Shown here one piece after another: positions 1 to 18,138 of a DNA stretch of 32,694 nt. Source of the DNA: an uncultured Thermoplasmatales archaeon (GTDB lineage Archaea > Thermoplasmatota > E2 > UBA202 > JdFR-43); contig CAZDCH010000003.1 of assembly GCA_964503915.1 (NCBI GenBank), positions 1-32,694 on the forward strand, in the 5' to 3' direction. A program made the position numbers and the translations under genes. Within the stretch, counting starts at the first letter, position 1. Every line of letters begins with the position of its first letter. The notes beneath the pieces were generated by a model. It had not been told where the DNA came from and made no database searches. It saw only the letters and a list, made by a program, of their open reading frames with translations.

Positions 1-2
1 TG

Positions 3-1598
3 ATGAAAATGATAAAAAAGAGATTTTTAGGAAAAGGGAAAATAGTACCAATTCTGATTGCATTTGTAATAATAACTGCGTTTGGAGCATTAATGTCAAT
101 TGAAAGAGCAGAAGCCACATGGAACAACCCAAATGATTATCAATATCATTACAAGATCATTATTTCAAATTCTAATTCCTCTACGCTCACAAATTTCCAG
201 TTGAAAATAATTCTTAATTCATCAGTTATAGACTATTCTCATTGGCTCAGCAATGGATATGATACTCTTTTCACCGATGCAACAAACACAACAATATACA
301 ATCATTACATGGAAGTATGGAATACAAGCGGAGATAGTATATTTTGGGTAAATGTTACCAACATACCTCCTGGAACATCTATAATGTATATGCACTGTGG
401 ACAGGCAGGAATTACAAGTGATCCTTCAGATTTTGATAATACATTTACAAAAAGTTATGCAGGAGATACTGCTTTAGATGTGGAATGGCTTTTAGATGAA
501 GGAACAGGAACAATAGCGGCAGACACATCAGGAAATAATATAAATGGAACTATAGTTGGTAATGCTACATGGGTTGGCTCAGAAGGGGGGCAATGGGACG
601 GATATACTGTAACATTTTCAACTGGTGATAGTATTCAGCTAGATGAAGGAGGAGATGCAGTAGAAGACAATGGACAGCTATCACATCCAACATCAGGCAC
701 ATGGGAAGTATGGTATAAGCATTTGGGAACTCCTTCATCAGATACAGCATATGTTGTATATTGTGATGCAGCTGAGACAAATGATGGAGATGCAGGCATA
801 TTAGTTTTAAATAATGATACAGTTAAGGCAAAAATAACAGATTCAACTCAGAGTTATGGCTTATACGGGGGAAATGTAGAAGTAGGAAAATGGTATCATC
901 TTGTACTTACACTAGATAATGGTATAGCAAAATTTTATGTGAATGGCGAATTAAAAGCATCTGCAACAACAAATGCATCATCTCTTGGAAATAATTTAAG
1001 AAATGTTTCATTAAGTAATTACTACAATCCATCTTACATACTAAACGGTATAGTGGATTCTTTCAGACAATATCACAGAGTCTTATCAGAAGAAGAAGTA
1101 GAAAGGCATTATTATAGAGCAAAATATGCAAATCCATTACCATCATATACAATTTCAGGAGGAGCAGTTGATATAACTCTTTCTGGTTATGATACCAACA
1201 AAGTGATATGGCTTCCAACTGCAACAATAACAGATACTACTGGCGATACAGTATGGAGCAACGAAACAAGCTATGGAATTTTAATATGTGAAAATACTGG
1301 AACATTAACAATAAATAATATGTCAATGTATATCACTGGTCCAACTGATTTTTCAGGAGAAATAATGTATGTGTATACAAACAAAAGTGGATCATGGCAG
1401 CTTTTGGGATCAGGAACTGATTCTGCTACAATAACTGTTATATCTTCAGGATCTCCATGGAGTCTTGTTCCAGGAGATAAAATATACTTTATTTTCAAGG
1501 TAATTTACCCAGCAGCTATAACAACAACAGACGGAACATATTATAGTGGAGGAACGCCACCGCCACAACTTGAATGCTATATCACAGCAGACATATGA
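3..1598 (+). CDS. Secreted DUF2341-like plus LamG/concanavalin-A-like lectin domain protein (531 aa)
   Basis: Long ORF with an N-terminal signal-peptide-like segment (KKRFLGKGKIVPILIAFVIITAFGALMSIERAEA). YHYKIIISNS..FWVNVTNIPPGTSIMYMHCG resembles DUF2341. GTWEVWYKH..WYHLVLTLDNGIAKFYVNGE..FRQYHRVLSEEEVERHY fits the LamG_3 pattern. I count 13 N-X-S/T sequons. Confidence 0.8.
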   Translation: MKMIKKRFLGKGKIVPILIAFVIITAFGALMSIERAEATWNNPNDYQYHYKIIISNSNSSTLTNFQLKIILNSSVIDYSHWLSNGYDTLFTDATNTTIYNHYMEVWNTSGDSIFWVNVTNIPPGTSIMYMHCGQAGITSDPSDFDNTFTKSYAGDTALDVEWLLDEGTGTIAADTSGNNINGTIVGNATWVGSEGGQWDGYTVTFSTGDSIQLDEGGDAVEDNGQLSHPTSGTWEVWYKHLGTPSSDTAYVVYCDAAETNDGDAGILVLNNDTVKAKITDSTQSYGLYGGNVEVGKWYHLVLTLDNGIAKFYVNGELKASATTNASSLGNNLRNVSLSNYYNPSYILNGIVDSFRQYHRVLSEEEVERHYYRAKYANPLPSYTISGGAVDITLSGYDTNKVIWLPTATITDTTGDTVWSNETSYGILICENTGTLTINNMSMYITGPTDFSGEIMYVYTNKSGSWQLLGSGTDSATITVISSGSPWSLVPGDKIYFIFKVIYPAAITTTDGTYYSGGTPPPQLECYITADI

Positions 1599-2899
1599 TA
1601 AGGAAAATCTTCCCCCTTCTTGTTATTCTATCTGCCATCTGTATTCATATATCTATAACAAGATCAGAATCTGATGCAACAACAAATAATAAATTTGTTG
1701 TATGGCTTGTAACTGATACTCACATTGGATCTACATCATATGGATATACCGATAAATATGTATTTCAGGATGCCATTCAAGATAGTGAAAATGATTGGAA
1801 TTTTGATTGGGATATAGCATTTGTTCTTGGTGATCTTACAGATAATGGATATGAAACAGAATATCAGAATTTTTCAGATGCATTTAGTGTGCTAACAATG
1901 CATAATCGTAGCGACTTTTATTGTATGTCAGGAAATCATGATGCTAAAAATGACGATGGCTCTCTTTTCAGAAAATATGTAGATCCAACAGGTGAAAATA
2001 CAGAATATAGTGGAGTTAACAATTCACAGAGAAAATTTAGTATAGAAAATGTAAGTGCAACAAAAGATTCATATACAGTAACAGTAGGAAATATACTTTT
2101 TATAGTAATGTCCCCAAATTGGAATAATAATGATTATTACAACTTTTCGTGGTGGTATAACATAGTTGAGAATGCTCCAGCCGATCTCAACATAATATGC
2201 TTATCTCACCATTGGGTAGAGGGTTGCGGAATTGGCGGTGGTCCAGTAAGTGGTATGGAAAACTCTGCTCAATTTGCTTCATGGATGGAAAATAATTCAG
2301 GAAGAATTTCAGCATGGTTAAATGGACATGAGCATTGGGATTACGATGCTGGAGAAACTTACATCTCAACAGCATGGGGAACAACATTTATTGATGCTTG
2401 TTCAATGGATGATGGTGGAACAGCTCAGACAGCATCAAAAAGTATAGTTCTCATATTTGAGGAAGGAAATACAACAGTAAAAGTTGGAGATTATTATCAC
2501 GGATTATCAACATTCAATTATTTAGATGGCGTTGAGCAATGGGATACAACAGATCCATGTAGAGGAAACACAACATTTGAATTATTATTTCCTTTCTATT
2601 TAGATCCTCCTCAGCCACGATTGCTCTTTTGTGAAAACTTCCCATGGAATGCTAGCAACATAACAATTAATACAACTAATCCAACATTTTGCTGGGACTG
2701 GAGCATTATTTCAAATCCCCTCTCGTATATACTCTTAGTTTATTCAACTGATGGAATGTTCAATTATACTGTAAATATTTCTCATTCAGAATTTCTTGTG
2801 GGAGATCATATAGAATATACATGGGGAACAAAAGGTGAACCTCCTCTGCCTAGGGGCAAAGAATATAAATGGAGGGTAAAATGTATCTACGCATTATAA
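1595..2899 (+). CDS. Secreted calcineurin-like metallophosphoesterase with C-terminal Fn3-like domain
   Basis: The ATG at 1595 forms an ATGA overlap with the upstream stop. Signal peptide MIRKIFPLLVILSAICIHISITRS. Metallophosphatase motifs appear in order: VTDTHIG, GDLTDNG, GNHD, SHHW, GHEHW. The C-terminus ends in a KEYKWRVK Fn3-like signature that is shared with the next genes. Confidence 0.8.
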   Translation: MIRKIFPLLVILSAICIHISITRSESDATTNNKFVVWLVTDTHIGSTSYGYTDKYVFQDAIQDSENDWNFDWDIAFVLGDLTDNGYETEYQNFSDAFSVLTMHNRSDFYCMSGNHDAKNDDGSLFRKYVDPTGENTEYSGVNNSQRKFSIENVSATKDSYTVTVGNILFIVMSPNWNNNDYYNFSWWYNIVENAPADLNIICLSHHWVEGCGIGGGPVSGMENSAQFASWMENNSGRISAWLNGHEHWDYDAGETYISTAWGTTFIDACSMDDGGTAQTASKSIVLIFEEGNTTVKVGDYYHGLSTFNYLDGVEQWDTTDPCRGNTTFELLFPFYLDPPQPRLLFCENFPWNASNITINTTNPTFCWDWSIISNPLSYILLVYSTDGMFNYTVNISHSEFLVGDHIEYTWGTKGEPPLPRGKEYKWRVKCIYAL

Positions 2900-3225
2900 T
2901 AATTGCCATTTTGATTGCAATCATTCCTATAAGTTATGCAACAGATACAGAACATTTCGATATAGCATTTCCCATAGATTATCAAATAATTAAGGAAAGT
3001 GATTGGAGTGATACAGGAAACTTTACTGTTTTAGAAGATAATGGAACTCCGCCTCCCCAAGGAGCAGATACAGAATATTTCGATATTGCCTTCACTACCG
3101 ATTATGTAAGTGGAAATGGAGGATTAATAGATAATGAAACAAATACAGATTATCTGTTTGGAATTATTGTTAGTATTATTCTTCTCAATTTCTTAATTGT
3201 TATAATAGGGGGGTTGAGAAAATGA
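2881..3225 (+). CDS. Small type-I membrane protein with an N-terminal DTEHFDIAFPIDYQ motif (2 copies)
   Basis: GGAGGG sits 5 nt upstream of the ATG at 2881. Signal peptide MYLRIIIIAILIAIIPISYA is followed at once by TDTEHFDIAFPIDYQ. A second, degenerate copy is DTEYFDIAFTTDYV. There is a C-terminal TM helix (LFGIIVSIILLNFLIVIIGG). Confidence 0.6.
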   Translation: MYLRIIIIAILIAIIPISYATDTEHFDIAFPIDYQIIKESDWSDTGNFTVLEDNGTPPPQGADTEYFDIAFTTDYVSGNGGLIDNETNTDYLFGIIVSIILLNFLIVIIGGLRK

Positions 3226-3395
3226 AAGAAATGAAAAATAAAATATTGGTTACAATTGTATTAATTTTATCCATATTTGTTAATGCAATGGCAACAGATA
3301 CAGAACATTTCGATATAGCATTTCCTATAGATTATCAGGCCACACCGCAGGAAGATACAGAACATTTCGATATAGCATTTCCTATAGATTATCAG
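2944..3395 (+). repeat. Four copies of a 42-nt coding repeat (gatacagaacatttcgatatagcatttcc[ct]atagattatca[ag]) spread over two adjacent genes
   Basis: Copies lie at 2944-2985, 3067-3108 (diverged), 3297-3338 and 3354-3395. The last two are identical over 42 nt and 57 nt apart. Copy 1 differs from them at 2 synonymous positions. Confidence 0.9.
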
Positions 3396-4148
3396 GCAGG
3401 AGATCCTCCAAACATAACAATAAATTCTCCTCCTACCCCTGCCAACAACTCAATTGATGTTGATATAAATGTAACATTCTCATTTGATGTAGATGATCCA
3501 AATGGAGATTTGCTTACAGTTACTTTATGGAAATATGAATCAGATGGAACATGGACCACATGGAATGAAACAACTGTTACTCCACCAGCAACAGTTACTT
3601 TCCAACGCAGCTTAGCATACAATACAACATACAAATGGAGAGCGAGTGTTCAAGATGAAACAAATTTAGTATATGCGAACTTCTATGGATGGACATTTAC
3701 AACCATTGAGGAAGGAGAAACACCAAATCATCCACCAGTTATATCTGATCCTTCGCCAGCAGATGGCGCCACCGGAGTATCATATCCATCTGTAATTTTA
3801 TGGGTAAACGTAACTGATCTAGATAATGATAGCATACAAGTTACATTTTACAATGCCAGCGATGGTAGCATAATACATCAAACAGAGTGGATACAGAGTA
3901 GTGATGGAAAATTTAGAGTAGGAGCAAATTATACAAATCTAGCTCCTGCCACCACCTATTATTGGTATGTAACAGCAAATGATGGAAAAACAATTACAAC
4001 TTCTCCAACATGGAGCTTCACCACCATGGAAAAAACAACAGGAAATGGAGATATAATAATAGAAATATCAAATGAATGGATATGGATTGCAATAATTCTA
4101 GTTGTAATTGTTGTTATGATGGCTTTCTTAATTATGGTCAGGTGGTAA
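3222..4148 (+). CDS. Secreted protein with two Fn3/Ig-like domains and a C-terminal TM anchor; N-terminal DTEHFDIAFPIDYQ x2
   Basis: ATGA overlap with the upstream stop. Signal peptide ..LILSIFVNAMA is followed by the TDTEHF.. motif twice. Two beta-rich modules end in TTYKWRASVQDETN and TTYYWYVTANDG..WSFTT. C-terminal helix WIWIAIILVVIVVMMAFLIMV. Confidence 0.75.
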   Translation: MKEMKNKILVTIVLILSIFVNAMATDTEHFDIAFPIDYQATPQEDTEHFDIAFPIDYQAGDPPNITINSPPTPANNSIDVDINVTFSFDVDDPNGDLLTVTLWKYESDGTWTTWNETTVTPPATVTFQRSLAYNTTYKWRASVQDETNLVYANFYGWTFTTIEEGETPNHPPVISDPSPADGATGVSYPSVILWVNVTDLDNDSIQVTFYNASDGSIIHQTEWIQSSDGKFRVGANYTNLAPATTYYWYVTANDGKTITTSPTWSFTTMEKTTGNGDIIIEISNEWIWIAIILVVIVVMMAFLIMVRW

Positions 4149-4149
4149 A

Positions 4150-4650
4150 ATGAAAAAGATAAAGGAGATATTGGGAAAAGTTGGGCCTATAGCAATACCA
4201 ATGCTAATGATGATGATACCAAACGCAGCAGCAACAAATCAAACTGGGATTAGTCAAGAAGAAGGAACAATCATAGCAGCTGCAGTATTTTTCTACTTGC
4301 TGGGAGCTGCAATAATATTTCTCGGGTTGCCACAACGGAAAGAAAAGAAAATTGCAGGATATATCACAGCAATAGGTATTGCATTGGCAATTATGGCAAT
4401 AATATTCTATTTTATTGAATTTGCTACTGGTTGGAACATTACATTCTGGACAAAATGGATAGATTATGCTGGACATAAAACAGCTGTATTGACAGCAGCT
4501 GCAGGAGCATTCTTAATTATGCTAGCAACTGCATATCTGGCATATCAAGAGAAAAATCAAAGGAGGGAGAGAGACATAGTAATACTTGGAATAATTGCGA
4601 TGCTGGTATATTCAATAATAATTCTATTCCCTGCTCTAACCTTTATCTAA
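4150..4650 (+). CDS. Polytopic membrane protein (about 4-5 TM)
   Basis: The ORF starts 1 nt after the upstream stop and has several long hydrophobic segments. I recognise no family. Confidence 0.65.
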   Translation: MKKIKEILGKVGPIAIPMLMMMIPNAAATNQTGISQEEGTIIAAAVFFYLLGAAIIFLGLPQRKEKKIAGYITAIGIALAIMAIIFYFIEFATGWNITFWTKWIDYAGHKTAVLTAAAGAFLIMLATAYLAYQEKNQRRERDIVILGIIAMLVYSIIILFPALTFI

Positions 4651-4689
4651 AGGCCCAATAAAAAGGAAGGAAGGAATTTTGGAGGTAAG

Positions 4690-6075
4690 ATGAAAAGGAA
4701 AAAGATGAAAATAATAAAATGGAAAGTGTTGCTCATACTTGCAGTTATTATTCATTTATCCTATTTGATTTCAGCAGAATGTATAGATGAATCTCAAACT
4801 AATATTGATATTGCATATGGAATCATGCCAACAGATGCAAGAGCTCAAAGTTTCAAAATAGATGATGGAGAGTGGATTTACAGAATAGATTTTTATTATG
4901 AGCCAGGAGATCTAGGCTATTTAATCTGCTGTTTAGATGATGATTTAAATCCAAAAAATGGAAATCTAACAGAACATATATTTGATGTTTCTTCATGGAC
5001 AGCTGGATGGCATACATGGAATATTAGAAACATATCTGGAGATGTTGAAGTTTCTGCAGGAACAACTTATTATTTGATCCTAACACCACTTGGGTTGGGA
5101 ACATCTGGAGGAAGTTGGTATGGCGCTGATTCCGATCCAGATCAATATCCAAATGGAGAAGCATATCTTTATCATGATGATACATGGAGTTCATTAGGTT
5201 ATGGAAAGGATTATGCTTTCATTGTTTATACTGATGTAAATCCTGTAGCATCATTTACATATTACACAGATTTACTGACAATATATACTAATGCCTCCAG
5301 TTCATATACTCCAGATGGGGATCCTATCACAAGCTATCAATGGGATTGGAATGGAGATGGAATATGGGATGATACAGGAATTACAGCAAATCATACATAT
5401 TCGCTTCCAGGAACTTATACGGTCCAGCTGAAAGTAACAGATGAAGACGGTCATATAGATATACAAAGTAAGCAAATAACAGTTTCATCAAATCAACCAC
5501 CGATTGCAAATTTCACATATTCTCCAGAAAACATAACAATCAATGAAACTGTTCACTTTACAGATCTATCATATGATCCTGATGGAAGCATAATAAACTG
5601 GACATGGAATTTTGGAGATGGAAATTATAGCTATGAGCAAAATCCCAGTCATGTATATGAAAATGCTGGCCATTATGATGTTACTCTAACAGTTACTGAC
5701 AACAGCGGAGGCACAAATTCAACAACAAAAACGATAACAGTTAGTGAAAAAAATGAAAATGGCTCTTCATGGTTTACTTGGAAACTGCCTTTCTCATGGT
5801 TTGCAATTTTTCTAACAGCGTTCACAGGCATATGCGGGTTCAGTTTATCAGCATTTTTTTTGAAACCCGAGTCTATAAAAGCATTAGGATATGCTCCAGC
5901 TGCCGGCAGCATTCTTACAACAATTCTTCTTATTGCAGTCATATTAATGTATCATGCGGGTGTTGCATGGTATTACATTGCATTAATCATTCTACTCATC
6001 ATTTTCATCCTTTACATTACTATAAAAGTAGTTATTAGCAAAAAAGGAAGAAAATTCTTAAGGAAGGTGCTATAA
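4690..6075 (+). CDS. Surface protein: N-terminal beta-sandwich domain, two PKD domains, C-terminal TM segments
   Basis: GGAGGT lies just upstream of the ATG, and there is a signal peptide. Two PKD-type repeats are present (ASFTYYT..WDWNGDG..HTYSLPGTYTVQLKVTDEDG and ANFTYSP..WNFGDGN..HVYENAGHYDVTLTVTDNSGG), followed by 3 hydrophobic helices. Confidence 0.8.
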   Translation: MKRKKMKIIKWKVLLILAVIIHLSYLISAECIDESQTNIDIAYGIMPTDARAQSFKIDDGEWIYRIDFYYEPGDLGYLICCLDDDLNPKNGNLTEHIFDVSSWTAGWHTWNIRNISGDVEVSAGTTYYLILTPLGLGTSGGSWYGADSDPDQYPNGEAYLYHDDTWSSLGYGKDYAFIVYTDVNPVASFTYYTDLLTIYTNASSSYTPDGDPITSYQWDWNGDGIWDDTGITANHTYSLPGTYTVQLKVTDEDGHIDIQSKQITVSSNQPPIANFTYSPENITINETVHFTDLSYDPDGSIINWTWNFGDGNYSYEQNPSHVYENAGHYDVTLTVTDNSGGTNSTTKTITVSEKNENGSSWFTWKLPFSWFAIFLTAFTGICGFSLSAFFLKPESIKALGYAPAAGSILTTILLIAVILMYHAGVAWYYIALIILLIIFILYITIKVVISKKGRKFLRKVL

Positions 6076-6782
6076 TGGGATGGACAGATGATATAGATAC
6101 AGAGGGATTAGTGGAAGAAAATCCATTCGTTTTCATCATAATTGGAATAATAGGAGCAATAGCTGTTACAATCTTACATTTTGTCGGCATAGATTATCAG
6201 CCGGGATGGTTCCAAGGACAAAATTTGTTATCTACCATTGGCTTAATCTTCCTAATTGTTTTCATTCCAGCAATAGCTTTATCAACATTAACTGGAAGAA
6301 GTGATTTAGTAAAATGGGAGGCAATTTTTTTACTAATTTCTGTTGCATTAATATTTATAGGTAATAACTTTGATTTTGATAAGTTTCTCGAAGCAATAAG
6401 AGAAGCAAAAATATTCAATACAAGTTGGGATACTTCAGATGTGATCACTGCAATTTTAATCGCTACAATAGGCATTTCTATCATTGCAACAGCATTTACA
6501 GGAAAAGGATTTAGCATAGGAACTGCATTAATTGTCCTAATTTGCTTTATAGGTTTAGGAATTATCAATTTTCCAGAGAAACTAGGAGGAGGAACTCATC
6601 AATTTATATCAAATCTAATTGGCGGAGATTTCGGAAAAGCAGTAGGAATAGGAGGATTGGCTACAGGGGGAGCATTAATAACATATGGAGCTATAGCAGG
6701 CTCGATGGGCCCAATAGGTATAGGAGCATTTGCAATAGGAGCTGGAATTTATTTGCTGGGGGCAAACATGGGATGGTGGTAA
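6075..6782 (+). CDS. Polytopic membrane protein with a glycine-zipper-rich C-terminus
   Basis: TAATG start/stop overlap. Multiple TM helices. The C-terminus reads GGDFGKAVGIGGLATGGALITYGAIAGSMGPIGIGAFAIGAGIYLLGA. Confidence 0.65.
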   Translation: MGWTDDIDTEGLVEENPFVFIIIGIIGAIAVTILHFVGIDYQPGWFQGQNLLSTIGLIFLIVFIPAIALSTLTGRSDLVKWEAIFLLISVALIFIGNNFDFDKFLEAIREAKIFNTSWDTSDVITAILIATIGISIIATAFTGKGFSIGTALIVLICFIGLGIINFPEKLGGGTHQFISNLIGGDFGKAVGIGGLATGGALITYGAIAGSMGPIGIGAFAIGAGIYLLGANMGWW

Positions 6783-6787
6783 TTAAA

Positions 6788-7114
6788 ATGAAAAGGGGAA
6801 AAACAATCCTTGGAATAACTGCAATTGCAGTTGCACTAGCTTCAATTATTCCAGTCATAGCCCATATTATCTTTTCCGCCTTAGGTTATATCTTTACAAT
6901 GATAGGAGCAGGCTTTTCATTGCTTGCAGCATGGTTTGCAAAAGCTTCTGATGAACCTCATGAAAAAGCAATTTGGGGAGGAATATTGCTTGCTCTAATA
7001 ATGGCAATGATCTATTACTTAGGATTACCTCTGCTAAAATACTGGTGGCTAATCATCCTTGCAATTATCATCTTTCTCATAGCAGTTTTCAATGCATGGA
7101 TAAGAAAAAAATGA
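6788..7114 (+). CDS. Small hydrophobic protein (108 aa, about 3-4 TM)
   Basis: I use the internal ATG at 6788 (MKRGKTILGITAIAVALASI..). The upstream part of track ORF 6542-7114 is R/N/S-rich and overlaps the previous gene in another frame. Confidence 0.6.
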   Translation: MKRGKTILGITAIAVALASIIPVIAHIIFSALGYIFTMIGAGFSLLAAWFAKASDEPHEKAIWGGILLALIMAMIYYLGLPLLKYWWLIILAIIIFLIAVFNAWIRKK

Positions 7115-7215
7115 AGCTAAAAATAGAAAGTTATAGGGATTTCCTCAAATTCTATTGGATAGTTGTAATTATATTTGTAAGTGTAACATTGTTTCTAACA
7201 TGGTGGTTGGGATGA
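7111..7215 (+). CDS. Tiny single-pass membrane protein (34 aa)
   Basis: ATGA overlap with the upstream stop. MKLKIESYRDFLKFYWIVVIIFVSVTLFLTWWLG has one TM helix. The ORF is very short, so confidence is low. Confidence 0.35.
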   Translation: MKLKIESYRDFLKFYWIVVIIFVSVTLFLTWWLG

Positions 7216-7445: not shown

Positions 7446-7525
7446 ATACAATAATAAAATTTGCATCAGCTCCCGCAACATGGGCGATATACTTCATAGG
7501 GATAATTTTATTCATATTTCTCAGC

Positions 7526-7861: not shown

Positions 7862-7868
7862 GAGAGGA

Positions 7869-8885: not shown

Positions 8886-8890
8886 TAAAA

Positions 8891-9202: not shown

Positions 9203-9224
9203 CTCTTCCTCCTCTTATTTATTT

Positions 9225-9706: not shown

Positions 9707-9746
9707 ACTGGAAGAAGACTATTACGAAGAGAAAAAAGAGGGACTG

Positions 9747-11158: not shown

Positions 11159-11513
11159 GGAATGGCACGAAACTATAATGCAATTATACAAAGCTCCAGT
11201 CCAGCAGCTCATAGATAAATTTGCAAATGAAGAAATACCACGCTACAAGGGAAGCAGAATTATTCTTGATGATGAAGCAGATTTGTTAAAAGCAGCCTGT
11301 GAGGCAGTCCAAATTGAAGTAAATGGAAATCTAAGAGAATACAAAACTTTCATGATATATTTGATTAAATTTATCATATTCCTATGGAACAAAATGGAAA
11401 AAGAGTTAAAGCCAGAAGATCCCTATATTCGATTATTGGATAAATTAAATGAAGGCGATTTAAGAAACATATTAAAAGAAGTAAAAGAAGATGAAGTACA
11501 GAAGCAGGGCTAA
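11136..11513 (+). CDS. Hypothetical soluble protein (125 aa)
   Basis: I prefer the ATG at 11136 over the TTG at 11121. No recognisable motif. It overlaps the next gene by 23 nt. Confidence 0.5.
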   Translation: MSEGGVYKEWHETIMQLYKAPVQQLIDKFANEEIPRYKGSRIILDDEADLLKAACEAVQIEVNGNLREYKTFMIYLIKFIIFLWNKMEKELKPEDPYIRLLDKLNEGDLRNILKEVKEDEVQKQG

Positions 11514-12567
11514 AATAGAAACAGATTTCTGGCTTCATGAAGTTAGATTTATTCCTTATTTTGTTCCAGAGAAATTAAAAAAATTGTTGATCATATTTGA
11601 ACATTTTTACAGAATAGGAAAAATAAACAAGCAAAGGATAACGATCATTGCTACTTATTTAAAACAAAAGTTTGGTATAGATTACCGTATAATAGATGAA
11701 AATCAAATCGTTTTCCTCCCTCGCTCTTCCGATGCATTAGTAAAATATTTTGCAAAATATCCAAATTTAATGAGCATTATAGGGGATAGACATTCTGGCA
11801 AAACAATAACAGCCTGGAAAATTGCCCTGGATATACTTAACAGAAAAAAGGCGGCGAGATTATACGTATATGGAGATGTAGATGCTCTGGGTTATGCATT
11901 GATAAATGAAAATTTGATAGATCAAAAAAGAATCGTGGTCAAAGAAGATTACACACTTCCTCCACTTGATGGAAAGCCAAAAATCATTCTCTATAATGAG
12001 CTTTCTGAAGCCTTAATGGGAAAAAGAGCACTTTCCATAGAAAATATAGAGTTAAACCTCCAGGCTCTTAGAAGTCGCCATTTAAATGCTTGGATAATTT
12101 ATAATGTGGTCCGCCATGGCAGCCTGGAGAGTGTGCTGAGAGAAACAACAAATATATTTCTTTTCAAATGGATGAGCGGAACTATACTCAAAAATGCAAT
12201 GAATATCGTACCATTAGGGTGGAAGGAGCTTTTGAAAATCACCATGCATTTTAACCAAAATGAAGCGCTTGCCATTGTTCCAGTAGTAGGCAAAGGAACC
12301 ACATTTTTTATTCATGAAACAAACCCACCGCCATGGCTTTTGCATGCTCATTCCGTTGCAAAGAAGAATCAAAGGCTGCTAATGGTAAAAAGTGAGCAGG
12401 AGAGAAGAATCATGAAGAGAATAGCAGAATTAAAAATGGATCAGGAAAGACAGTGGACTAACGAAGAAATAAGGCTCATTTTAAAGAAAGAATTTGGCGT
12501 AGATTATTCAGTTAGGACCATACAAAACAAATGGAGGAAATACAGGAAAATAATGGAGATAGAATGA
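11491..12567 (+). CDS. P-loop NTPase (358 aa) with a C-terminal HTH-like tail
   Basis: Walker A GDRHSGKT at aa 98-105 (nt 11782-11805). Candidate Walker B PKIILYNELSE. The C-terminus WTNEEIRLILKKEFGVDYSVRTIQNKWRKYRK is Myb/HTH-like. Confidence 0.7.
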   Translation: MKYRSRAKIETDFWLHEVRFIPYFVPEKLKKLLIIFEHFYRIGKINKQRITIIATYLKQKFGIDYRIIDENQIVFLPRSSDALVKYFAKYPNLMSIIGDRHSGKTITAWKIALDILNRKKAARLYVYGDVDALGYALINENLIDQKRIVVKEDYTLPPLDGKPKIILYNELSEALMGKRALSIENIELNLQALRSRHLNAWIIYNVVRHGSLESVLRETTNIFLFKWMSGTILKNAMNIVPLGWKELLKITMHFNQNEALAIVPVVGKGTTFFIHETNPPPWLLHAHSVAKKNQRLLMVKSEQERRIMKRIAELKMDQERQWTNEEIRLILKKEFGVDYSVRTIQNKWRKYRKIMEIE

Positions 12568-13187
12568 AGGCAGTAATTTATGCCAGGGTATCAACTGAAG
12601 AACAGAAAAAAGGATATAGTATAGAAGCACAAATTGAGGAATGTAAAAAATATTGTGAATTAAAAGGATGGGAAGTTGTAAAAGTGTATAAAGAAGTAAA
12701 ATCAGCTGCTAATATAAAAAGAGATGAGTTGAGTAAGGCAATAGAAATGGTAAAGTTGGGAGTTGCAGACATATTAGTTGCATGGAAAATAGATAGAATA
12801 ACAAGGAGCATCAAAGATTTCATTTTTTTAACAGAGGAATTAATGAAAGAAAAAGATGGAGAAAATTATATTGCTTTCACAAGCTTGATGGAAAATTTGG
12901 ATCTAACAACAGCAGTTGGAAGGGCATTCGCAAGCATTGTTACTGTATTTGCTCAGTTGGAAAGAGAAATGATTTCAGAAAGAACAAAAATGGGTATTAA
13001 AAAAGCAAAGGAGGCTGGAAAGCAGATTGGCTATCCAAAAGGTCGGGATCGAATCCCGGCATGGAAAAAAGAAAAGATCATCGAGTTGCACAAGCAGGGT
13101 AAAACATATAAGGAAATTCAAATGCAGCTAAAAGTTGGAGCTGGCACAATAACAAGCACACTCCGCAAGGCGGGCTTAATAGAATAG
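12564..13187 (+). CDS. Small serine recombinase (resolvase/invertase type; N-terminal catalytic domain, C-terminal HTH)
   Basis: ATGA overlap. MKAVIYARVSTEEQ carries the catalytic Ser motif. Also present: WKIDRITRS, LEREMISERTKMGIKKAKEAGKQIGYPKG, and the C-terminal HTH GKTYKEIQMQLKVGAGTITSTLRKAG. Confidence 0.9.
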   Translation: MKAVIYARVSTEEQKKGYSIEAQIEECKKYCELKGWEVVKVYKEVKSAANIKRDELSKAIEMVKLGVADILVAWKIDRITRSIKDFIFLTEELMKEKDGENYIAFTSLMENLDLTTAVGRAFASIVTVFAQLEREMISERTKMGIKKAKEAGKQIGYPKGRDRIPAWKKEKIIELHKQGKTYKEIQMQLKVGAGTITSTLRKAGLIE

Positions 13188-13569
13188 CAAATTTGCAATG
13201 AAACCCCCTTAGTTTTTGTGAAAATTAAGGATTTCGTGAAATGTAAAAAATCATACAAATTTACATACAAAAACAGTAGTTCCGAATCTAAAAATTTGCC
13301 AAAGAAAGTAAGATTTACAGATTCTACAAGAAATGGCAGACTTGCCAAAATTAGTAAAGTCATTTCTTGATAGAGGGAAATCTATTAAAATGTGTCGCAG
13401 AGAAGCTTGGTATAGATATTAGCCTATGACATTAATCCAAAATGTGTAGAGAAGCGTGTCCTTTTTTTATTTAAATTTTACTCCACCCGGTGGAGTTCAA
13501 AAAATGGATGTTTTGAGTTTCGGAACATAAGAGATGAATAAAAAAAATTTTCACCCCCCTTTCGCACCT

Positions 13570-13771
13570 TTGCTCAGCAAAACGAACGTTTTGCTGAGTG
13601 CATCCTGGCTATATCTTAAAAATTTGCTGAATTGCTGCCTGACAGGCAGCAAGGCATGAAACATTTTTCATTGTCTATTATATATATCTATATATATTAC
13701 GATGTAGGTGCATATAATTTTATAAATTACTCCTCTCCCCCTCTAAGATTTTGAAATATTCTCTCCCCCTC
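13570..13771. promoter_or_regulatory. Candidate cis-acting region (origin-like): two GC-rich hairpins, clustered TTGCTG/CAGCAA hexamers, alternating AT tract, 11-bp direct repeat
   Basis: Hairpin 13573-13598 has 12-bp arms (ctcagcaaaacg / cgttttgctgag). Hairpin 13632-13652 has 9-bp arms (ttgctgcct / aggcagcaa). Hexamers lie at 13575, 13591, 13624, 13632 and 13647. The (TA)n-like tract is at 13676-13699. ctctccccctc occurs at 13733-13743 and 13761-13771. Confidence 0.4.
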
Positions 13772-13821
13772 CAACTTTTTTACATTGCCAATTAATTAAT
13801 AAAATTACAGGAGGTGATAAC

Positions 13822-14022
13822 ATTAAAAGAAAGATCATAATTGAAAAGAATGTATTTGTTCGTCCTGTTGATGTAGCAAAGTTCATTTATAAAAAAGCTA
13901 AAAAATGCCAAGAAGAAGGAAAAGGAATAAATGAATTATTAGATGATCTAGCAAAAATTATCATTGATATGGAAGAAGAAAAATTCCAGGAGCTGGCGGA
14001 AAAATGGGGCGTGGATCCTTAA
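13822..14022 (+). CDS. Possible small ORF (66 aa) lacking a canonical start; ATT 4 nt after GGAGGTGA
   Basis: The frame is open from about 13746 to the TAA at 14020-14022. GGAGGTGA (13810-13817), then taac, then ATT at 13822. The product is IKRKIIIEKNVFVRPVDVAKFIYKKAKKCQEEGKGINELLDDLAKIIIDMEEEKFQELAEKWGVDP. The only in-frame ATG/GTG/TTG is the ATG near the C-terminus (IIIDMEEE). Confidence 0.25.
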   Translation: MKRKIIIEKNVFVRPVDVAKFIYKKAKKCQEEGKGINELLDDLAKIIIDMEEEKFQELAEKWGVDP

Positions 14023-14031
14023 CTTCTTTCC

Positions 14032-14340
14032 TTATTCTTTTTCTTTTGCATAATCTATGAATCCTTTTATCATCATAGCTAATCCTACAACCACAAAAAA
14101 TAATCCAAACAATATTTCAAACACTATTTCCTGTTTTATTGTCTCCGATGCAAAAGGAAAAAAAGGATTGTTATATCGCCACCATCCATCAAGAAAGATC
14201 AGCATACCAAATAAAAAGCTAAATATTCCTACTCCAATGCAAAATTCAGGATAAGTTTTCTTCTTTTTCTTCTTATTTTTTGGAACTTTTTTCTCTTTTG
14301 GAACTTTTATATCCCATCCATACAAAGATTCCTCATTCAT
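14032..14340 (-). CDS. Small membrane protein (102 aa) with a lysine-rich N-terminal region
   Basis: Two TM helices follow KVPKNKKKKKKT. Its start overlaps the stop of the upstream wHTH gene (ATGA). Confidence 0.6.
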   Translation of the reverse strand: MNEESLYGWDIKVPKEKKVPKNKKKKKKTYPEFCIGVGIFSFLFGMLIFLDGWWRYNNPFFPFASETIKQEIVFEILFGLFFVVVGLAMMIKGFIDYAKEKE

Positions 14341-14630
14341 TCCTCCTCCATAATCCTTTTTATTTCCATCAATTTTTCTGCTACTTTTTTACCTTTAGGA
14401 GTAAGAGAAATAAAAACCACTCTTCTAAAAATGTAATCAGGTTCTTCAATAGCTCTTTCTTCTCTATTAATGAGCTTCTTTTTTTCCAATTCCTTTAACC
14501 TATCATACAATGTATTCGAAACAACACCAGATCTTTTTTGTAATTGTGTAATTGTAAGTTTTTCGTATTCAACTAAAGTCAATAAAATTTTTGTTGATCC
14601 ACTTTTTTCTAACCATTTCAGAATATTCAT
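14337..14630 (-). CDS. Winged-helix transcriptional regulator (97 aa)
   Basis: STKILLTLVEYEKLTITQLQKRSGVVSNTLYDRLKELEKKKLINRE is a typical wHTH (ArsR/PadR-like) pattern. It is divergent from the ParB operon. Confidence 0.75.
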   Translation of the reverse strand: MNILKWLEKSGSTKILLTLVEYEKLTITQLQKRSGVVSNTLYDRLKELEKKKLINREERAIEEPDYIFRRVVFISLTPKGKKVAEKLMEIKRIMEEE

Positions 14631-14680
14631 TTATTATCAGTTTGATAACGTTAAATTATTTTTAAAGTGATTATATGTTA

Positions 14681-14745
14681 TTGCAAAACTATAAGTATTA
14701 TAAAATCGCAAATATTATAAATATACAAACATTATAGTTTTGCAA
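14681..14745. promoter_or_regulatory. Perfect 14-bp inverted repeat bracketing TATA-like boxes in the divergent promoter region (candidate operator)
   Basis: ttgcaaaactataa (14681-14694) and ttatagttttgcaa (14732-14745) are exact reverse complements. The 37-nt spacer contains attataaaat and attataaata. Confidence 0.45.
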
Positions 14746-14826
14746 AGCAGGCGGGGCTCAAAGAAACCAACAAAAATAGGAGGGGGTGGGCTTTGCCTGC
14801 CCCATCCGAGCATTCCCGCCTGCTTT
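14744..14826 (+). ncRNA. GC-rich nested stem-loop (83 nt): candidate structured 5' leader or small RNA just upstream of the ParB-operon RBS
   Basis: Outer 12-bp perfect stem aaagcaggcggg (14744-14755) / cccgcctgcttt (14815-14826). Inner 9-bp hairpin GGGGTGGGC-ttt-GCCTGCCCC (14783-14803, 7 GC pairs plus 2 GU). GAGGAGGT lies at 14831-14838. Confidence 0.35.
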
Positions 14827-14844
14827 CCTTGAGGAGGTATGGAG

Positions 14845-15060
14845 ATGGAAGGTAAGGAAAAGGCTTGGGCAAAAATAGTTTTTAAGGATGGAGAACGTAT
14901 AGGATCCATCAAGGGAGAAATACTTGATGATGAAGATGAAATTTTTATTACAATAAAAAGGAGAGATGGCAAAGAATTCAGAATAAACAAGCATCACATC
15001 ATCAAAATAGAAAAGAATAATTTTTTAGGGGAGGCAAAGGAGGAGAGAAAATGCCAGTAA
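14845..15060 (+). CDS. Small beta-rich protein (71 aa)
   Basis: I prefer the second ATG (14845) because GGAGGT ends at 14838. The track start is 14839. No family recognised. Confidence 0.5.
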   Translation: MEGKEKAWAKIVFKDGERIGSIKGEILDDEDEIFITIKRRDGKEFRINKHHIIKIEKNNFLGEAKEERKCQ

Positions 15061-15560
15061 TGATAACCATTTCCGGCCTAAACACGGAGGAGGTTTCAAA
15101 AATTCTTTCATTGATCACAAAACTTGGCAACTTTAACATAGAGACTAATGCTACCAATGTAATTTATCTGACGAAAGCAAATGAGGCAAAAGCAAAAAAA
15201 GTAGAGGTACAGGTTCCAGATCCTAGCAACAGTTTCCCAAAAAGAAAGAAGAAGAGACATCACTTTACCGAAGAAGAAGAAGAAATTTTCATTGTTCAAA
15301 ATCTCGAAAAGATGTCATATTCCGAAATTGCAAGGCAACTTGGGTTAAGAAGGAAACAGGTTGAGGATAAAATCTACAATATGAGAAAAACAGGCAGATG
15401 GGATGAAATCAAAAAGAAAATTGAGAAGAAAAAAGAAAAAAGCTGCAACAACAATTGCCGGGATTGCAAATATGCAAAGCCAGAAGAAGTTGGCAACAGC
15501 ATCTGGTGCACCAGATTTAACAGAAGAATCTTCTTGGAGGAGGCGGAACCGTGCAGCTGA
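15051..15560 (+). CDS. HTH protein with a C-terminal Cys-rich (Cys4-like) motif (169 aa)
   Basis: GGAGGAG lies upstream. HFTEEEEEIFIVQNLEKMSYSEIARQLGLRRKQVEDKIYNMRKTG is a Myb/sigma-r4-like HTH. The C-terminus is CNNNCRDCKY..WCTRFN..EPC. Confidence 0.6.
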   Translation: MPVMITISGLNTEEVSKILSLITKLGNFNIETNATNVIYLTKANEAKAKKVEVQVPDPSNSFPKRKKKRHHFTEEEEEIFIVQNLEKMSYSEIARQLGLRRKQVEDKIYNMRKTGRWDEIKKKIEKKKEKSCNNNCRDCKYAKPEEVGNSIWCTRFNRRIFLEEAEPCS

Positions 15561-16909
15561 CACTAGGAACATATATCCCGATAGACTTGATTAAAATCAC
15601 AGGTCTCAATCCTAGAAAAAACTTCGATGATGATAGCATGAAGGAACTTGCAAAAAGCATTCAGAACCACGGAATCCTGGAACCAATAATAGTAAGACCG
15701 AAGGGAAACCATTATGAGCTCGTTGCTGGTGAGCGTCGCCTCCGTGCAGCGAAGATGGTTGGTCTTGACAAAGTGCCAGTAATTATCCGTGAATACACCG
15801 ATGAACAGATGATGGAAATCATGCTCATGGAAAATCTGCAGCGAAAGGATCTAACTCCAATTGAGGAAGCACATGCCCTGCAAAAAATCATTGCAAGCGG
15901 CATCAAAAAGGAGGATCTGGCGAAAAGGATTGGCAAAAGCGAATCGTGGATATCAAAACGCCTCCGCCTCCTGGAATTGCCAGAGGAACTGCAGAAGCTG
16001 GTGGAGGAGAGTCGCCTTACCATTGAACAGGCTCTTAAAATAGTTCCGTTTGCAAAATGGCCCGTTATCAAATTCATTCTGAAGGAAATTAAAAATACAT
16101 CAAATGATATAGATTGGATTCTCATTCATGCTGTGCAAAACAGGACCTACGCACTCAATCTTGACTTTTTCGGCTACACTCTCAAGGATGTCCAGGAATA
16201 TTTTGATTTTTCGGAATGCAAGAACTGCAAAGCTCCGATAAAATTCAACAACTCAAGGATATGCCTCCATAAAGAATGCTTCTCAATGAAACTGAAGGAG
16301 GCAAAGCGAAAACTCAGAGAGGCAAAGGAAAAGGAACTTGAAGAAATGAAACAGAAGAGCATTGTGGATCTCGATAAAATAGGATATGGAAACTATGTAG
16401 AGCTGGCCGATACATGGGATGCACCAAAATTTGATGTCAGCGTGTGCGAAAGTTGTCCGCATAAAAAGATGGGAATAAGATGGAATGGCAAAAAAATACC
16501 GGTATGCCTCAATCCATCATGTTTCAAAGAAAAACAGAGGAAAGCTGAAGAGGAAATCAAAAAGAGGATCAGAGAAACAATTAAAACCGTTAAGAAAAAT
16601 CTGGAAACCATCAGAATAACAAAATTGCATACAAATGGATTAAGGATTGTTCTATTGAAGCTAATTGATGAGATTGCTGAAACGAATCCTTGGGAAATAC
16701 TTAAGCCTTGGAATCCACCAAAGGAATGGAAAAAACTGATAGATCGGTTAAATGACGAACAACTTGCTCAAGCAATCATAAGAGCTGTTGTGTTACATGA
16801 CCTAACTAATCTTGAATGGTGGGGAAATACAGATAGACTTCTTGTCAAAAAATACCTACCAGAGCTGATGGAAAAACAGAAAAACGGTCAGGAGGAGGTG
16901 AGATCATAA
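15551..16909 (+). CDS. parB: ParB/Spo0J-like N-terminal domain protein with two C-terminal Cys4 zinc-ribbon-like motifs (452 aa)
   Basis: GTG start 7 nt after GGAGG. NPRKNFDDDSMKELAKSIQNHGILEPIIVRP..YELVAGERRLRAAKMVGLDKVPVII carries the canonical ParB box with GERR, and LMENLQRKDLTPIEEA follows. Later motifs are CKNCKAP..CLHKEC and CESCPHKK..CLNPSC. Confidence 0.85.
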   Translation: MQLTLGTYIPIDLIKITGLNPRKNFDDDSMKELAKSIQNHGILEPIIVRPKGNHYELVAGERRLRAAKMVGLDKVPVIIREYTDEQMMEIMLMENLQRKDLTPIEEAHALQKIIASGIKKEDLAKRIGKSESWISKRLRLLELPEELQKLVEESRLTIEQALKIVPFAKWPVIKFILKEIKNTSNDIDWILIHAVQNRTYALNLDFFGYTLKDVQEYFDFSECKNCKAPIKFNNSRICLHKECFSMKLKEAKRKLREAKEKELEEMKQKSIVDLDKIGYGNYVELADTWDAPKFDVSVCESCPHKKMGIRWNGKKIPVCLNPSCFKEKQRKAEEEIKKRIRETIKTVKKNLETIRITKLHTNGLRIVLLKLIDEIAETNPWEILKPWNPPKEWKKLIDRLNDEQLAQAIIRAVVLHDLTNLEWWGNTDRLLVKKYLPELMEKQKNGQEEVRS

Positions 16910-16974
16910 AAAGAACAGCAAGTATTGGTATGGCTGCCTTTCTGGTAAAATTTTTTTATGAAAGAAAGAATGGG

Positions 16975-17053
16975 AGGACCAGCAGGATTTGCATCTCCCC
17001 TCCTGTTGCATCCCTTTTTTTATTTAAAAAACTTGCCTCCTCCTGCTGGTCCT
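16975..17053. repeat. Perfect 13-bp inverted repeat with a 53-nt C/T-rich spacer between parB and the integrase gene
   Basis: aggaccagcagga (16975-16987) and tcctgctggtcct (17041-17053) are exact reverse complements. The spacer contains ttgcatctccc / ttgcatccc and a T7 run. Confidence 0.6.
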
Positions 17054-17075
17054 TTCGCCTTTTCAAGGAGGAGAA

Positions 17076-17411
17076 ATGATTAGCGATGCTACATGGCAGG
17101 AATTTATAAATCATGCAGTTGCAATTCAACAGCTTTCAGAGACAACAATAATTGAAACTATCCGCAAATTAAAACATTTGGAAAAAAATGGCATCAATTT
17201 GATGGCTCAAAAAAATGATTTAGAAAAACAAGTATATGCTTTCTTTGCAAAAAAGTTAAGACAGGGTTCTTCTTATTCAGCATTAAATCATTATGTTCGT
17301 GCTTTGAACAGATGGTGCAAATTTAGACAATTAGATCTTAAATTCAAAAGATACAAAGAACATCATCCGCCCCGCCGAATTCCATTAACAGGAGATATAA
17401 AAGATTGTTAG
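17076..17411 (+). CDS. Tyrosine integrase, N-terminal SAM-like/core-binding fragment (frameshifted from the catalytic part)
   Basis: GGAGGAG lies upstream. WQEFINHAV..YAFFAKKLRQGSSYSALNHYVRALNRWCKF is typical of the phage-integrase N-terminal domain. It ends at a TAG just after the A-run at 17399-17402. Confidence 0.75.
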   Translation: MISDATWQEFINHAVAIQQLSETTIIETIRKLKHLEKNGINLMAQKNDLEKQVYAFFAKKLRQGSSYSALNHYVRALNRWCKFRQLDLKFKRYKEHHPPRRIPLTGDIKDC

Positions 17412-18061
17412 ATGCCTGTAAAGGAAAAGATCCAACTTCAAAAAGAGATCGAACAATAATCTATACTCTATCTTTATTAGGTTTAAGAGCTAGAGAATTA
17501 TGCAACATTAATTTAGATGATATAGATTGGAAAAATAGTTTATTAACCATAAGAGGAAAAGGAGGAAAAATAAGAATTATTCCCATTCCGAAGAGGTTAT
17601 TAAATGGAAAGAATGTTCCTAGCCTTTATAATTACATAAAATATCATCGTATGCCAACAGATAAAAAGGCTTTATTTACAACTAAAAATGGAAGATTAAC
17701 TCCAACTTATCTAAGAAACATAATAAAAAGGAGGGCAAAACAGGCAGGTTTACCATGGATTCATACGCATTCATTACGCCATTACGCAGCAACAAATTGG
17801 CTTAGAGCTGGTTTAAATATTCGCATCGTTCAGGAATTGCTGGGGCATGAAAGCATCGAAACAACTGGAATTTATTTGCATATAATCGAAGCAGATTATA
17901 AAGCAGCTTTAGAAAATCCAAAAATTGAAGATCCTTTAAGGAAAAAAACAATACCTCACAAAAAAAGGAACATGCTGTCAGAATCTCTCCTTATGTTTGT
18001 AGCGGGCTCGGGGGGATTTGAACCCCCGACCAACAGGTTAAGAGCCTGCCGCTCTACCTAG
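17405..18061 (+). CDS. Tyrosine integrase (XerC/D-like), catalytic domain fragment; the 3' end reads into tRNA-Lys
   Basis: RDRTIIYTLSLLGLRARELCNINLDDID (Arg I), GKGGKIRIIPIP, HSLRHYAATNWLRAG (H-x-x-R) and LLGHESIETTGIYLH (His/Tyr). The final residues SGGFEPPTNRLRACRST are a translation of the tRNA gene. Confidence 0.85.
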   Translation: MLDACKGKDPTSKRDRTIIYTLSLLGLRARELCNINLDDIDWKNSLLTIRGKGGKIRIIPIPKRLLNGKNVPSLYNYIKYHRMPTDKKALFTTKNGRLTPTYLRNIIKRRAKQAGLPWIHTHSLRHYAATNWLRAGLNIRIVQELLGHESIETTGIYLHIIEADYKAALENPKIEDPLRKKTIPHKKRNMLSESLLMFVAGSGGFEPPTNRLRACRST

Positions 18062-18076
18062 CTGAGCTACGAGCCC
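18003..18076 (-). tRNA. tRNA-Lys (anticodon CTT), 74 nt
   Basis: The reverse complement folds as a cloverleaf: GGGCTCG ta GCTC agctaggta GAGC g GCAGG CT-CTT-AA CCTGT tggtc GGGGG ttcaaat CCCCC CGAGCCC g. No CCA is encoded. There is a TATA-like box about 24 nt upstream (18094-18104). Confidence 0.9.
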
Positions 18077-18138
18077 TATAAAAATATTATTTTGCATATA
18101 AAAATGTTTTTTAAGGATGTAAAAATAGGATTAGCAAC

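Follow-up and report, generated by a model that had tools for sequence, protein, structure and literature searches.

A probable integrated mobile element at the 3' end of tRNA-Lys(CTT) in an uncultured Thermoplasmatales archaeon

We analysed a DNA stretch of 32,694 nucleotides (nt), hereafter the window, that corresponds to positions 1-32,694 (forward strand) of contig CAZDCH010000003.1 in assembly GCA_964503915.1, from an uncultured Thermoplasmatales archaeon (Thermoplasmatota; E2; UBA202; JdFR-43). Positions 1-18014 very probably make up the right-hand part (18 kb) of a circular double-stranded DNA element, estimated at about 20-23 kb in total, that has integrated into the genome of a hydrothermal-type Thermoplasmatota archaeon known from a metagenome-assembled genome (MAG). 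Counting a contig that prolongs the window to the left, the element is at least 19 kb long. It is probably a representative of an unnamed family, of a well-known kind of mobile element, which comprises copies integrated at the 3' ends of tRNA genes as well as junction forms, circular or tandem. As judged from sequence, the conserved block of the family consists of membrane proteins, an FtsK/HerA-type (A32-like) ATPase, a small serine recombinase and a tyrosine integrase. An earlier note on this DNA had interpreted the left part of the window as an element integrated at the 3' end of tRNA-Lys(CTT), at least 18 kb long and continuing past the left edge; this is now supported by a permuted relative, by the leftward contig and by variably occupied tRNA targets.

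Extent of the element and its border with the host

The permuted relative is an 18,256-nt contig (E093; ENA ERZ27248455 k141_669652, merged from loci L093 and L098) found via the closest homologues of the window's integrase. It carries, in the order of the window, homologues of the genes at 1574-2899 (C-terminal part), 4150, 4690, 6075, 6785, 7526, 7839, 8018, 8589, 9747, 10340 and 11121, followed by the ATPase (80% identity) and the beginning of the serine recombinase gene, while its other end holds homologues of the genes at 14839 and 15051 and of the integrase. Relative to the window the contig is circularly permuted: the integrase is followed by seven small or medium-sized genes and then by the homologue of 1574-2899, and there is no tRNA. 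Such an adjacency of the integrase and the 1574-2899 homologue can arise only in a circle or a tandem array, so 1574-18001 constitutes one mobile replicon, and the left end of the element must therefore lie beyond the window. E093 lacks the region of the serine recombinase, the non-coding segment and the minus-strand genes, where the Logan contig of the window strain breaks too.

A contig identical to the window at its left edge (L001) extends it by 1122 nt and adds a PAPS-reductase-family gene and an open reading frame (ORF) of 64 amino acids (aa). Both are non-host genes, which fits a left end situated beyond the window. The earlier note had read TGATG at nt 1-5 as the end of an upstream gene at nt 3; L001 shows instead an 84-nt intergenic spacer, the upstream gene ending 85 nt earlier, although the element does extend leftwards. 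The PAPS-reductase gene (P0001) is also found on a 9,224-nt contig of the same MAG. Look-ups with the window proteins returned only contigs identical to the window, plus the 1.1 kb of L001, and no further leftward extension was found by scanning JGI and IMG/VR with the PAPS-reductase-family protein. A 37%-identical homologue of this protein occurs on two contigs of 33-35 kb (L089/L090; JGI Ga0180302_10000096 and ENA ERZ27227321 k141_136932), which are full of ORFans, encode a DUF87 (HerA-like) ATPase and a helicase, and probably represent another, unrelated mobile element or virus.

To the right of the tRNA-Lys gene, family matches and conservation in related MAGs bear out the housekeeping character previously ascribed to the genes: L10e, a winged helix-turn-helix (wHTH) protein, tRNA-Phe, CDP-alcohol phosphatidyltransferase, a helicase, isoleucyl-tRNA synthetase, an eIF-2B-like protein and an M42 peptidase. 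The L10e protein is 94% identical to that of one Thermoplasmatota MAG and 85-90% identical to those of other Thermoplasmata MAGs; nucleotide homology to the L10e-carrying relatives begins at about 18137, the L10e-proximal genes (18168-21481) are conserved in related MAGs, and the block 29674-32662 recurs in two of the fetched loci (L006/L007). Conservation of the left-hand block in synteny, which the earlier note had named as an observation that would speak against an element, was not seen: the 29 left-hand ORFs have no homologue in 80 fetched L10e loci except for a weak PKD-domain match (36% identity, L053). The compositional difference noticed before is confirmed as well (29/60 G+C in the line previously counted as 28/60, and 16/60 in the other), the G+C content being 0.344 in 1-18001 and 0.300 from 18077 to the end (Mann-Whitney test on 1-kb windows, p=0.0008). 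The left block is thus foreign to the host, given its higher G+C content and the lack of left-hand homologues near L10e. The L10e neighbourhood itself is uninformative as an empty site: both tRNA-Lys and the element are missing there from the relatives, whose left neighbours vary, folate and riboflavin genes being found in one of them.

These data bear on an alternative, in which the left part of the window is a host genomic island of surface-protein genes beside a decayed integrase and mobile DNA is confined to 13.2-18.0 kb or less. The left-most genes (those for the LamG, metallophosphoesterase and PKD proteins) are indeed of kinds common in archaeal chromosomes, the integrase is frameshifted and the left attachment site (attL) was not found. 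An island is nevertheless contradicted by E093, in which homologues of 1574-2899, 4150-8885 and 9747-12567 lie on the integrase contig, on the far side of the integrase. Moreover, none of the left-most genes lies beside L10e in relatives, and the G+C content is uniform over 1-18 kb, at 4.3 points above the host flank. We regard the island as highly improbable.

Attachment site, integrase and occupancy of the tRNA target

The integration target is an intact minus-strand tRNA-Lys(CTT) gene, located by ARAGORN at 18002-18076 and by Rfam at 18003-18076 (RF00005, 72.2 bits), where the earlier note had placed it; the insertion lies at its 3' end, which the integrase gene abuts. The attachment (att) site could be defined by comparing junction forms with integrated forms in two cases. 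In the first, the junction form E093 and contig L092, with a 70%-identical integrase integrated at tRNA-Lys(CTT), are near-identical up to ...CAGTAGCGGGC and then diverge; past the divergence point E093 resembles the tRNA T arm only loosely. In the second, contig L111, the junction form nearest to the window integrase, shares CTCCTTATGTT(A/T)GTAGCGGGCTCGGGGG with 17986-18014 and continues beyond this core with a T-arm-like imperfect palindrome. The attR core of the window is accordingly placed at 17986-18014 (about 29 nt, 28/29 identical to the attP-type junction of L111); it covers 12-13 nt of the tRNA (the discriminator, the 3' acceptor strand and the start of the T stem) and about 16 nt downstream. 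By these alignments, the sequence common to attP and the target is short, about 16-29 nt.

Because the core is short, the other end of the element will escape any search for a long tRNA repeat. The direct repeat of 18003-18050 suggested earlier as an att test was therefore misdirected: attL is predicted to carry the short core (~CTCCTTATGTTTGTAGCGGGCTCGGGGG) rather than a copy of that segment, and a left-end gene of about 50 aa ending in ..DLVDLLHGAVGA is expected beside it. A second copy of the tRNA 3' part is indeed absent from the window, as had been stated (none with up to 3 mismatches over 50 nt). The only exact match of at least 12 nt to 17960-18100 within the window is a 12-nt one in an AT-rich spacer outside the core, the core itself has no second copy in the window or in L001, and the tRNA 3' half used as an attP query gave no match in IMG/VR.

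The integrase frame of the junction forms E093 and L111 runs through the site without a stop and overlaps the start of the conserved ~50-aa gene by 14 nt; the 'GGD' near the end of several free-form integrase tails corresponds to the GGAGGTGAT ribosome-binding site of this gene, which is absent from the window and L001. Junction-type tails occur in 8/18 aligned integrases. The integrases of the window, P0016 and P0022 read into tRNA-Lys(CTT) at the DNA level, and P0024, P0028 and P0034 end in tRNA-antisense-like peptides. With a core that is short and lies beyond the catalytic Tyr, integration disrupts neither the tRNA nor the catalytic part of the integrase and exchanges only the last 20-35 residues of the protein.

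The integrase itself (17076-18061, plus strand) is Xer-like and had been taken for one gene reading into the tRNA. The ORF matching PF00589 (8e-33) does enter the tRNA gene and stops at 18061, its last 20 codons, VAGSGGFEPPTNRLRACRST, being antisense tRNA-Lys, but the gene consists of two frameshifted ORFs (17076-17411 and 17405-18061) rather than one. A DNA alignment with four intact homologues reveals a 1-nt deletion in the A run at about 17399-17402 of this 986-nt gene (GATAT-AAAAGA). With A17402 read twice, the repaired integrase has 328 aa and can be aligned over its full length with some two dozen intact homologues (303-354 aa, 50-71% identity). The catalytic residues expected of a tyrosine recombinase, R138, K165, H232-R235, H258 and Y267, are invariant in 18 aligned integrases, and the best NCBIfam match is archaeal XerA (168 bits, below the cut-off). 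Two Logan assemblies and one independent assembly from ENA match the window at 100% identity; the ENA contig spans the integrase with the same frameshift.

Owing to the 1-nt deletion, the window integrase is probably a pseudogene and this copy immobile, unable to excise by itself; for annotation, this means that 1-18014 should not be counted as core genome and that the integrase is best labelled as a pseudogene. Alternatively, the integrase might still be made by -1 ribosomal slippage on A_AAA_G at 17399-17403, the element thus being mobile. The shift needed is one of -1 on a run of four As, where Lys-tRNA can re-pair, and the frameshift is fixed in all assemblies of the window strain. However, the four homologues compared as DNA and 17 compared as proteins are intact in one frame, so the shift is not a feature of the family, and the canonical heptamer is absent. 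Slippage is, in our view, unlikely.

Two described types of archaeal integrases provide a useful reference. In the SSV type (type I) integration splits the gene into Int(N) and Int(C) parts and the motif is R..KxxR..Y, whereas in the pNOB8 type (type II) the gene stays whole and the motif is R..YxxR..Y (PMC8371274). The element's integrase has the motif R..HxxR..H..Y (HSLRH), which is neither. It has in common with SSV-type integrases an attP inside the integrase frame; in the element, however, this attP lies beyond the catalytic Tyr and only the tail is swapped. The integrase is not of the 'suicidal' SSV type, given its unsplit gene and its HSLRH motif. The pNOB8 type is similar in that the catalytic gene is whole after integration, as it is in the element's relatives P0016 and P0022, but its motif is not found here, HxxR standing in place of YxxR. 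Mycobacteriophages BPs and Brujita display integration-dependent immunity, with attP in the 3' end of the repressor gene and integration removing a degradation tag. These phages and the element both have attP in the 3' end of a coding gene, that of the repressor in the former and of the integrase in the latter.

A scan of JGI metagenomes with the tRNA sequence yielded ten contigs, which, together with the integrase homologues, document different states of the target. Related integrases abut tRNA-Lys(CTT) in L092/L103 and in L094-L096, the latter group having a further related integrase there, next to replication factor C; the L092-type junction is repeated in L103 and L106. In L101, L109 and L110 two glycosyltransferase-like genes and CTP synthase are found 113 nt from the tRNA 3' side, which in L104 is adjoined by a kinase-like host gene, and no integrase of the element family is present in L101, L102, L104, L105 and L107-L110. 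Occupancy of the tRNA-Lys(CTT) gene thus differs from one related organism to another, which is what a mobile element would be expected to produce. The empty-site alleles that the earlier note proposed to look for in relatives exist alongside junction forms, although none is from the window's own strain or lineage. On contig L106 the tRNA-Lys(CTT) gene (1369-1440) is accompanied by no more than the terminal ~76 nt of a P0016-type integrase (identical over the final 50 nt). This fragment and about 480 nt of unrelated sequence form an insert that separates the tRNA from a host glycosyltransferase gene and was probably left behind when an element was deleted.

The family, its ATPase and its relation to known systems

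The window's ATPase is rare, its relatives numbering only 27 among 1.84 billion cluster representatives and 45 in a set of 5.8 billion. One of them is AciM339_0216 of the cultured Aciduliprofundum sp. MAR08-339, whose genome contains two tandem 17,522-nt copies of an element (99.98% identical; L099/L100, CP003168.1 about 152,357-190,972). Its gene order agrees with that of the window for proteins of 198, 272 and 130 aa, the ATPase (48% identity), the serine recombinase (46%) and the tyrosine integrase (33%). The array, whose left end falls outside the stretch analysed, ends at an intron-containing tRNA-Ile(GAT), found only with the intron option of ARAGORN, and the identity between the junction and the array end stops 16 nt into tRNA-Ile, the same geometry as at the window's att site. 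No published account of this family or of the Aciduliprofundum array was found in the literature searched, which left many subscription journals outside.

The three proteins encoded 5' of the ATPase gene (9747-11513, plus strand), which have homologues in the same order in E093 (44-65% identity) and the Aciduliprofundum element (30-45%), form with it the core of the family. The 198-aa protein is N-terminally anchored, and the 272-aa protein is beta-rich, with a signal peptide and a C-terminal anchor; its single-sequence AlphaFold2 (AF2) model is of low confidence (predicted local distance difference test, pLDDT, 61.5). The hallmark gene of the family (11491-12567, plus strand) codes for a P-loop ATPase of the FtsK/HerA superfamily (A32-like) with a C-terminal wHTH domain. 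Its AF2 model (pLDDT 82.5) has FtsK, HerA, VirB4 and STIV2 B204 as top Foldseek matches, and A32-like packaging ATPases are the best matches in a viral structure library. The A32-like assignment holds at the level of fold only (Foldseek probability 1.0, template modelling score 0.5-0.63 on the target); because these scores are modest, they establish the fold class and not an orthologue. The modelled fold supports a DNA-translocating role. The next gene (12531-13187, plus strand) encodes a 218-aa serine recombinase of the resolvase/invertase type (PF00239, 9e-38, residues 14-164; helix-turn-helix (HTH) at 180-213), whose catalytic domain, C-terminal HTH and length of about 200 aa are those of the small serine recombinases. 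It directly follows the ATPase gene in the window and in E093, one small ORF (78-108 aa) intervening in Aciduliprofundum.

Taken together, the conserved block of small membrane proteins, a signal-peptide/anchor protein and an FtsK/HerA-type ATPase may serve to move DNA through a membrane. The large LamG/PKD/Ig surface proteins would then mediate cell recognition and the small serine recombinase would resolve multimers, with ParB as a putative accessory. What this transport is for can be read in two ways. We lean slightly towards packaging into a membrane-containing virus-like particle over a plasmid transfer apparatus, giving the former about an even chance. In the latter reading, which is quite possible without being the one we favour, the element is an integrated plasmid and not a provirus, with the ATPase and membrane proteins effecting conjugation-like or vesicle-based DNA transfer, as put forward for the pT26-2 family, and with ParB and the resolvase serving maintenance. 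The ATPase model resembles VirB4, FtsK and HerA to the same degree as it does viral packaging ATPases, a ParB and a small serine recombinase are present, and the architecture parallels that of the plasmids pT26-2 and pMEFER01. On the other hand, there is no sequence or profile similarity to the pMEFER01 core proteins and no recognizable replication gene, the best matches in the viral library are A32-like packaging ATPases, and the anchored LamG/PKD proteins, like the two small and very basic ones, would fit a virion no less well.

Several observations weigh against an integrated, virus-like element as we picture it. Neither a capsid protein nor a fusogen or a replication protein was recognized among the products of the window, E093 and L001, and the combination of ParB and a resolvase is more typical of plasmids. 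BLAST searches of GenBank phages and plasmids with the ATPase and the LamG protein gave nothing relevant, and IMG/VR contains no detected relative, also when scanned with the ATPase alignment; a plasmid would sit well with the missing capsid, fusogen and IMG/VR relatives. E093 shows no terminal overlap that would close it into a circle, and it could stem from a tandem integrated array rather than a free circle. No isogenic empty site has been seen for the window's host lineage, relatives having other genes beside L10e. Finally, attL was not recovered, and both the size of the element and its competence for excision are inferred.

Among described systems, the pT26-2 plasmids offer the closest architectural parallels to a plasmid interpretation: like the element, they insert by a tyrosine integrase at tRNA 3' ends, have a T-arm-like palindrome in att, consist mostly of ORFans and combine a block of many transmembrane (TM) proteins with large secreted or carbohydrate-binding proteins and a HerA/VirB4/STIV2 B204-like ATPase; the gene layout of pMEFER01 resembles that of the element. 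The family, 17-38 kb in size and reported only from Thermococcales and Methanococcales, is thought to function in DNA transfer through membranes (PMC6972569). Its att core is longer (about 58 nt, versus about 16-29 nt in the element; PMC6972569), its integrase has an SSV-type motif in contrast to HxxR in the element, the serine recombinase is conserved in the element, and the host phylum differs. Membership in this family, defined by seven core genes (t26-5p, 6p, 7p, 11p, 13p, 14p and 15p), was not recovered by hhalign or tblastn. Comparing 12 window-family profiles by hhalign with 15 proteins of pMEFER01 (one family member, represented by single sequences) gave no probability of at least 10%, the ATPase scoring 0.9%, and a tblastn search of plasmid records with the ATPase found no match.

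The AvPV1-like pleomorphic proviruses resemble the element in being about 18 kb long and located at a tRNA gene, with a short 27-nt att, an adjacent integrase and hydrothermal-vent hosts, and in having a morphogenetic block of membrane proteins that ends in a ~120-aa protein overlapping a ~360-aa P-loop NTPase (PMC10919331). Profile comparison did not place the element in Pleolipoviridae or 'Thalassapleoviridae' and detected no VP3-, VP4- or ORF6-like protein: hhalign with profiles built from four or five AvPV1-like viruses, which are shallow enough for distant homology to have escaped them, gave at most 6% for VP3, VP4 and ORF6. The NTPase reached 47% probability over 66 columns, spanning Walker A to Walker B only, and tblastn against GenBank virus records yielded no match. 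Archaeal proviruses and viruses with A32-like packaging ATPases (STIV/STIV2 B204 and, reportedly, TKV4 and MVV, treated by Krupovic and Bamford in 2008) share with the element the ATPase fold class, tRNA integration and a similar size; the element's ATPase differs in carrying extra N- and C-terminal domains. No jelly-roll capsid was found among the window proteins by Pfam or PHROG matches.

On a bolder and decidedly tentative view, the element would both stand for a new lineage of archaeal viruses or virus-like transfer agents of Thermoplasmatota, the cultivable Aciduliprofundum among them, marked by an FtsK/HerA ATPase and small membrane proteins, and use attP-in-integrase as an integration-state switch. 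The circular form would keep the integrase frame open for about 30 codons, the 14-nt overlap coupling the integrase to the first left-end gene. Upon integration the two genes would be uncoupled and the integrase would end in another tail. Known mobile elements of Thermoplasmatota are scarce; a 2026 survey of Thermoplasmatota and Nanobdellota (5041 and 2275 genomes) counts no more than 30 provirus regions for the two combined (PMC13573593). The window provides a well-anchored example, represented in several vent metagenomes and in integrated and junction forms, and the tandem copies in the cultured Aciduliprofundum sp. MAR08-339 make particles, excision and transfer accessible to experiment.

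Other genes and features of the window

Most of the other left-hand ORFs lack Pfam or PHROG matches, in keeping with their earlier description as ORFans, and the serine recombinase, ParB and small HTH proteins pointed out at the same time all have Pfam matches. Searches of PDB sequences with four proteins or profiles gave nothing useful. The left-most element gene in the window (3-1598, plus strand) encodes a secreted, adhesin-like protein with Laminin_G_3 and DUF2341 domains (PF13385, 1e-19; PF10102), of which contigs L001-L004 have an identical copy. It is followed by a gene for a secreted metallophosphoesterase (1574-2899, plus strand; PF00149, 2.5e-10), whose C-terminal domain is common to a 646-aa protein of E093 (47-55% identity by tblastn to E093 8714-9100). 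Two surface proteins of 118 and 308 aa (2869-4148, plus strand) share the motif ATDTEHFDIAFPIDYQ and have an Ig-like Big_5 domain (PF13205) and a C-terminal membrane anchor. A 47-nt direct repeat, present in four copies at 2938-3394, encodes ATDTEHFDIAFPIDYQ in both of these adjoining genes, and contigs L003 and L004 end at 2967, within its first copy.

The membrane-protein block (4150-8589, plus strand) has collinear homologues in E093 (45-69% identity). It encodes a 166-aa TM protein, a 461-aa PKD protein (PKD_4, 2e-35) with C-terminal TM helices, and hydrophobic proteins of 235, 109, 111, 60, 99 and 91 aa; a 76-aa HTH protein is encoded within it (7215-7445, plus strand). Its small proteins have no Pfam or PHROG match. 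The segment 8589-9706 (plus strand) codes, according to the translations, for two very basic Lys/Arg-rich proteins (98 and 106 aa) and contains two additional small ORFs; none of these has a family match, and E093 has a homologue of 8589-8885.

Downstream of the serine recombinase gene lies a hairpin-rich, ORF-free region of 630 nt (13188-13815; RNA fold z=-4.15) with a (TA)n tract, two CTCTCCCCCTC repeats and perfect hairpins at 13573-13598 and 13634-13651. Assemblies break here, the Logan contig of the window strain ending at 13346 and the ends of E093 flanking the equivalent region. Rfam detects no RNA family in the non-coding regions of the window, this one included. It may be an origin or a regulatory region, or a segment present in two orientations. 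Next to it, an open frame of about 66 codons (13823-14023, plus strand) follows a GGAGGTGAT sequence and has no ATG, GTG or TTG start nearby; it may represent a small gene that uses an unusual start codon.

The minus-strand pair at 14032-14630 encodes a 102-aa membrane protein and a 97-aa wHTH regulator (MarR/TrmB-like; PF01978/PF01047), and a homologue adjoins the related integrase in L094/L096. On the plus strand, 14839-15560 encodes a 73-aa protein and a 169-aa HTH protein (Sigma70_r4_2-like), which are located near the integrase in relatives (tblastn to E093 and L094). A ParB-family protein (15551-16909, plus strand; PF02195, 2e-31; PF17762, 4e-17; TIGR00180) comprises an N-terminal ParB/Srx domain, an HTH and a long C-terminal extension, and has no tblastn match in E093 or the Aciduliprofundum element. 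Between the divergently oriented wHTH and 73-aa genes, the promoter region (14681-14826) contains the inverted repeats AAAGCAGGCGGG / CCCGCCTGCTTT and TTGCAAAACTATAA / TTATAGTTTTGCAA, and G+C-rich perfect inverted repeats, AGGACCAGCAGGA / TCCTGCTGGTCCT, are found at 16975-17053, just 5' of the integrase start; both sets may be operators or terminators.

In the host flank, the two L10e relatives that share the window's 29.7-32.7-kb block carry it inverted. Relative to these two MAGs (L006 and L007), in which L10e borders on the 29674-32662 block, the window has the segment from L10e to the M42 peptidase (18137-29688) inverted, with one breakpoint within the 60-nt spacer between tRNA-Lys and L10e (18077-18136) and the other at 29674-29688. 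In L103, an ArsR-like homologue of 21548-21865 is also oppositely oriented relative to the tRNA. The ORF 19015-19728 starts inside tRNA-Phe (18998-19074), and the start codon of the CDP-alcohol phosphatidyltransferase is most likely the ATG at 19078.

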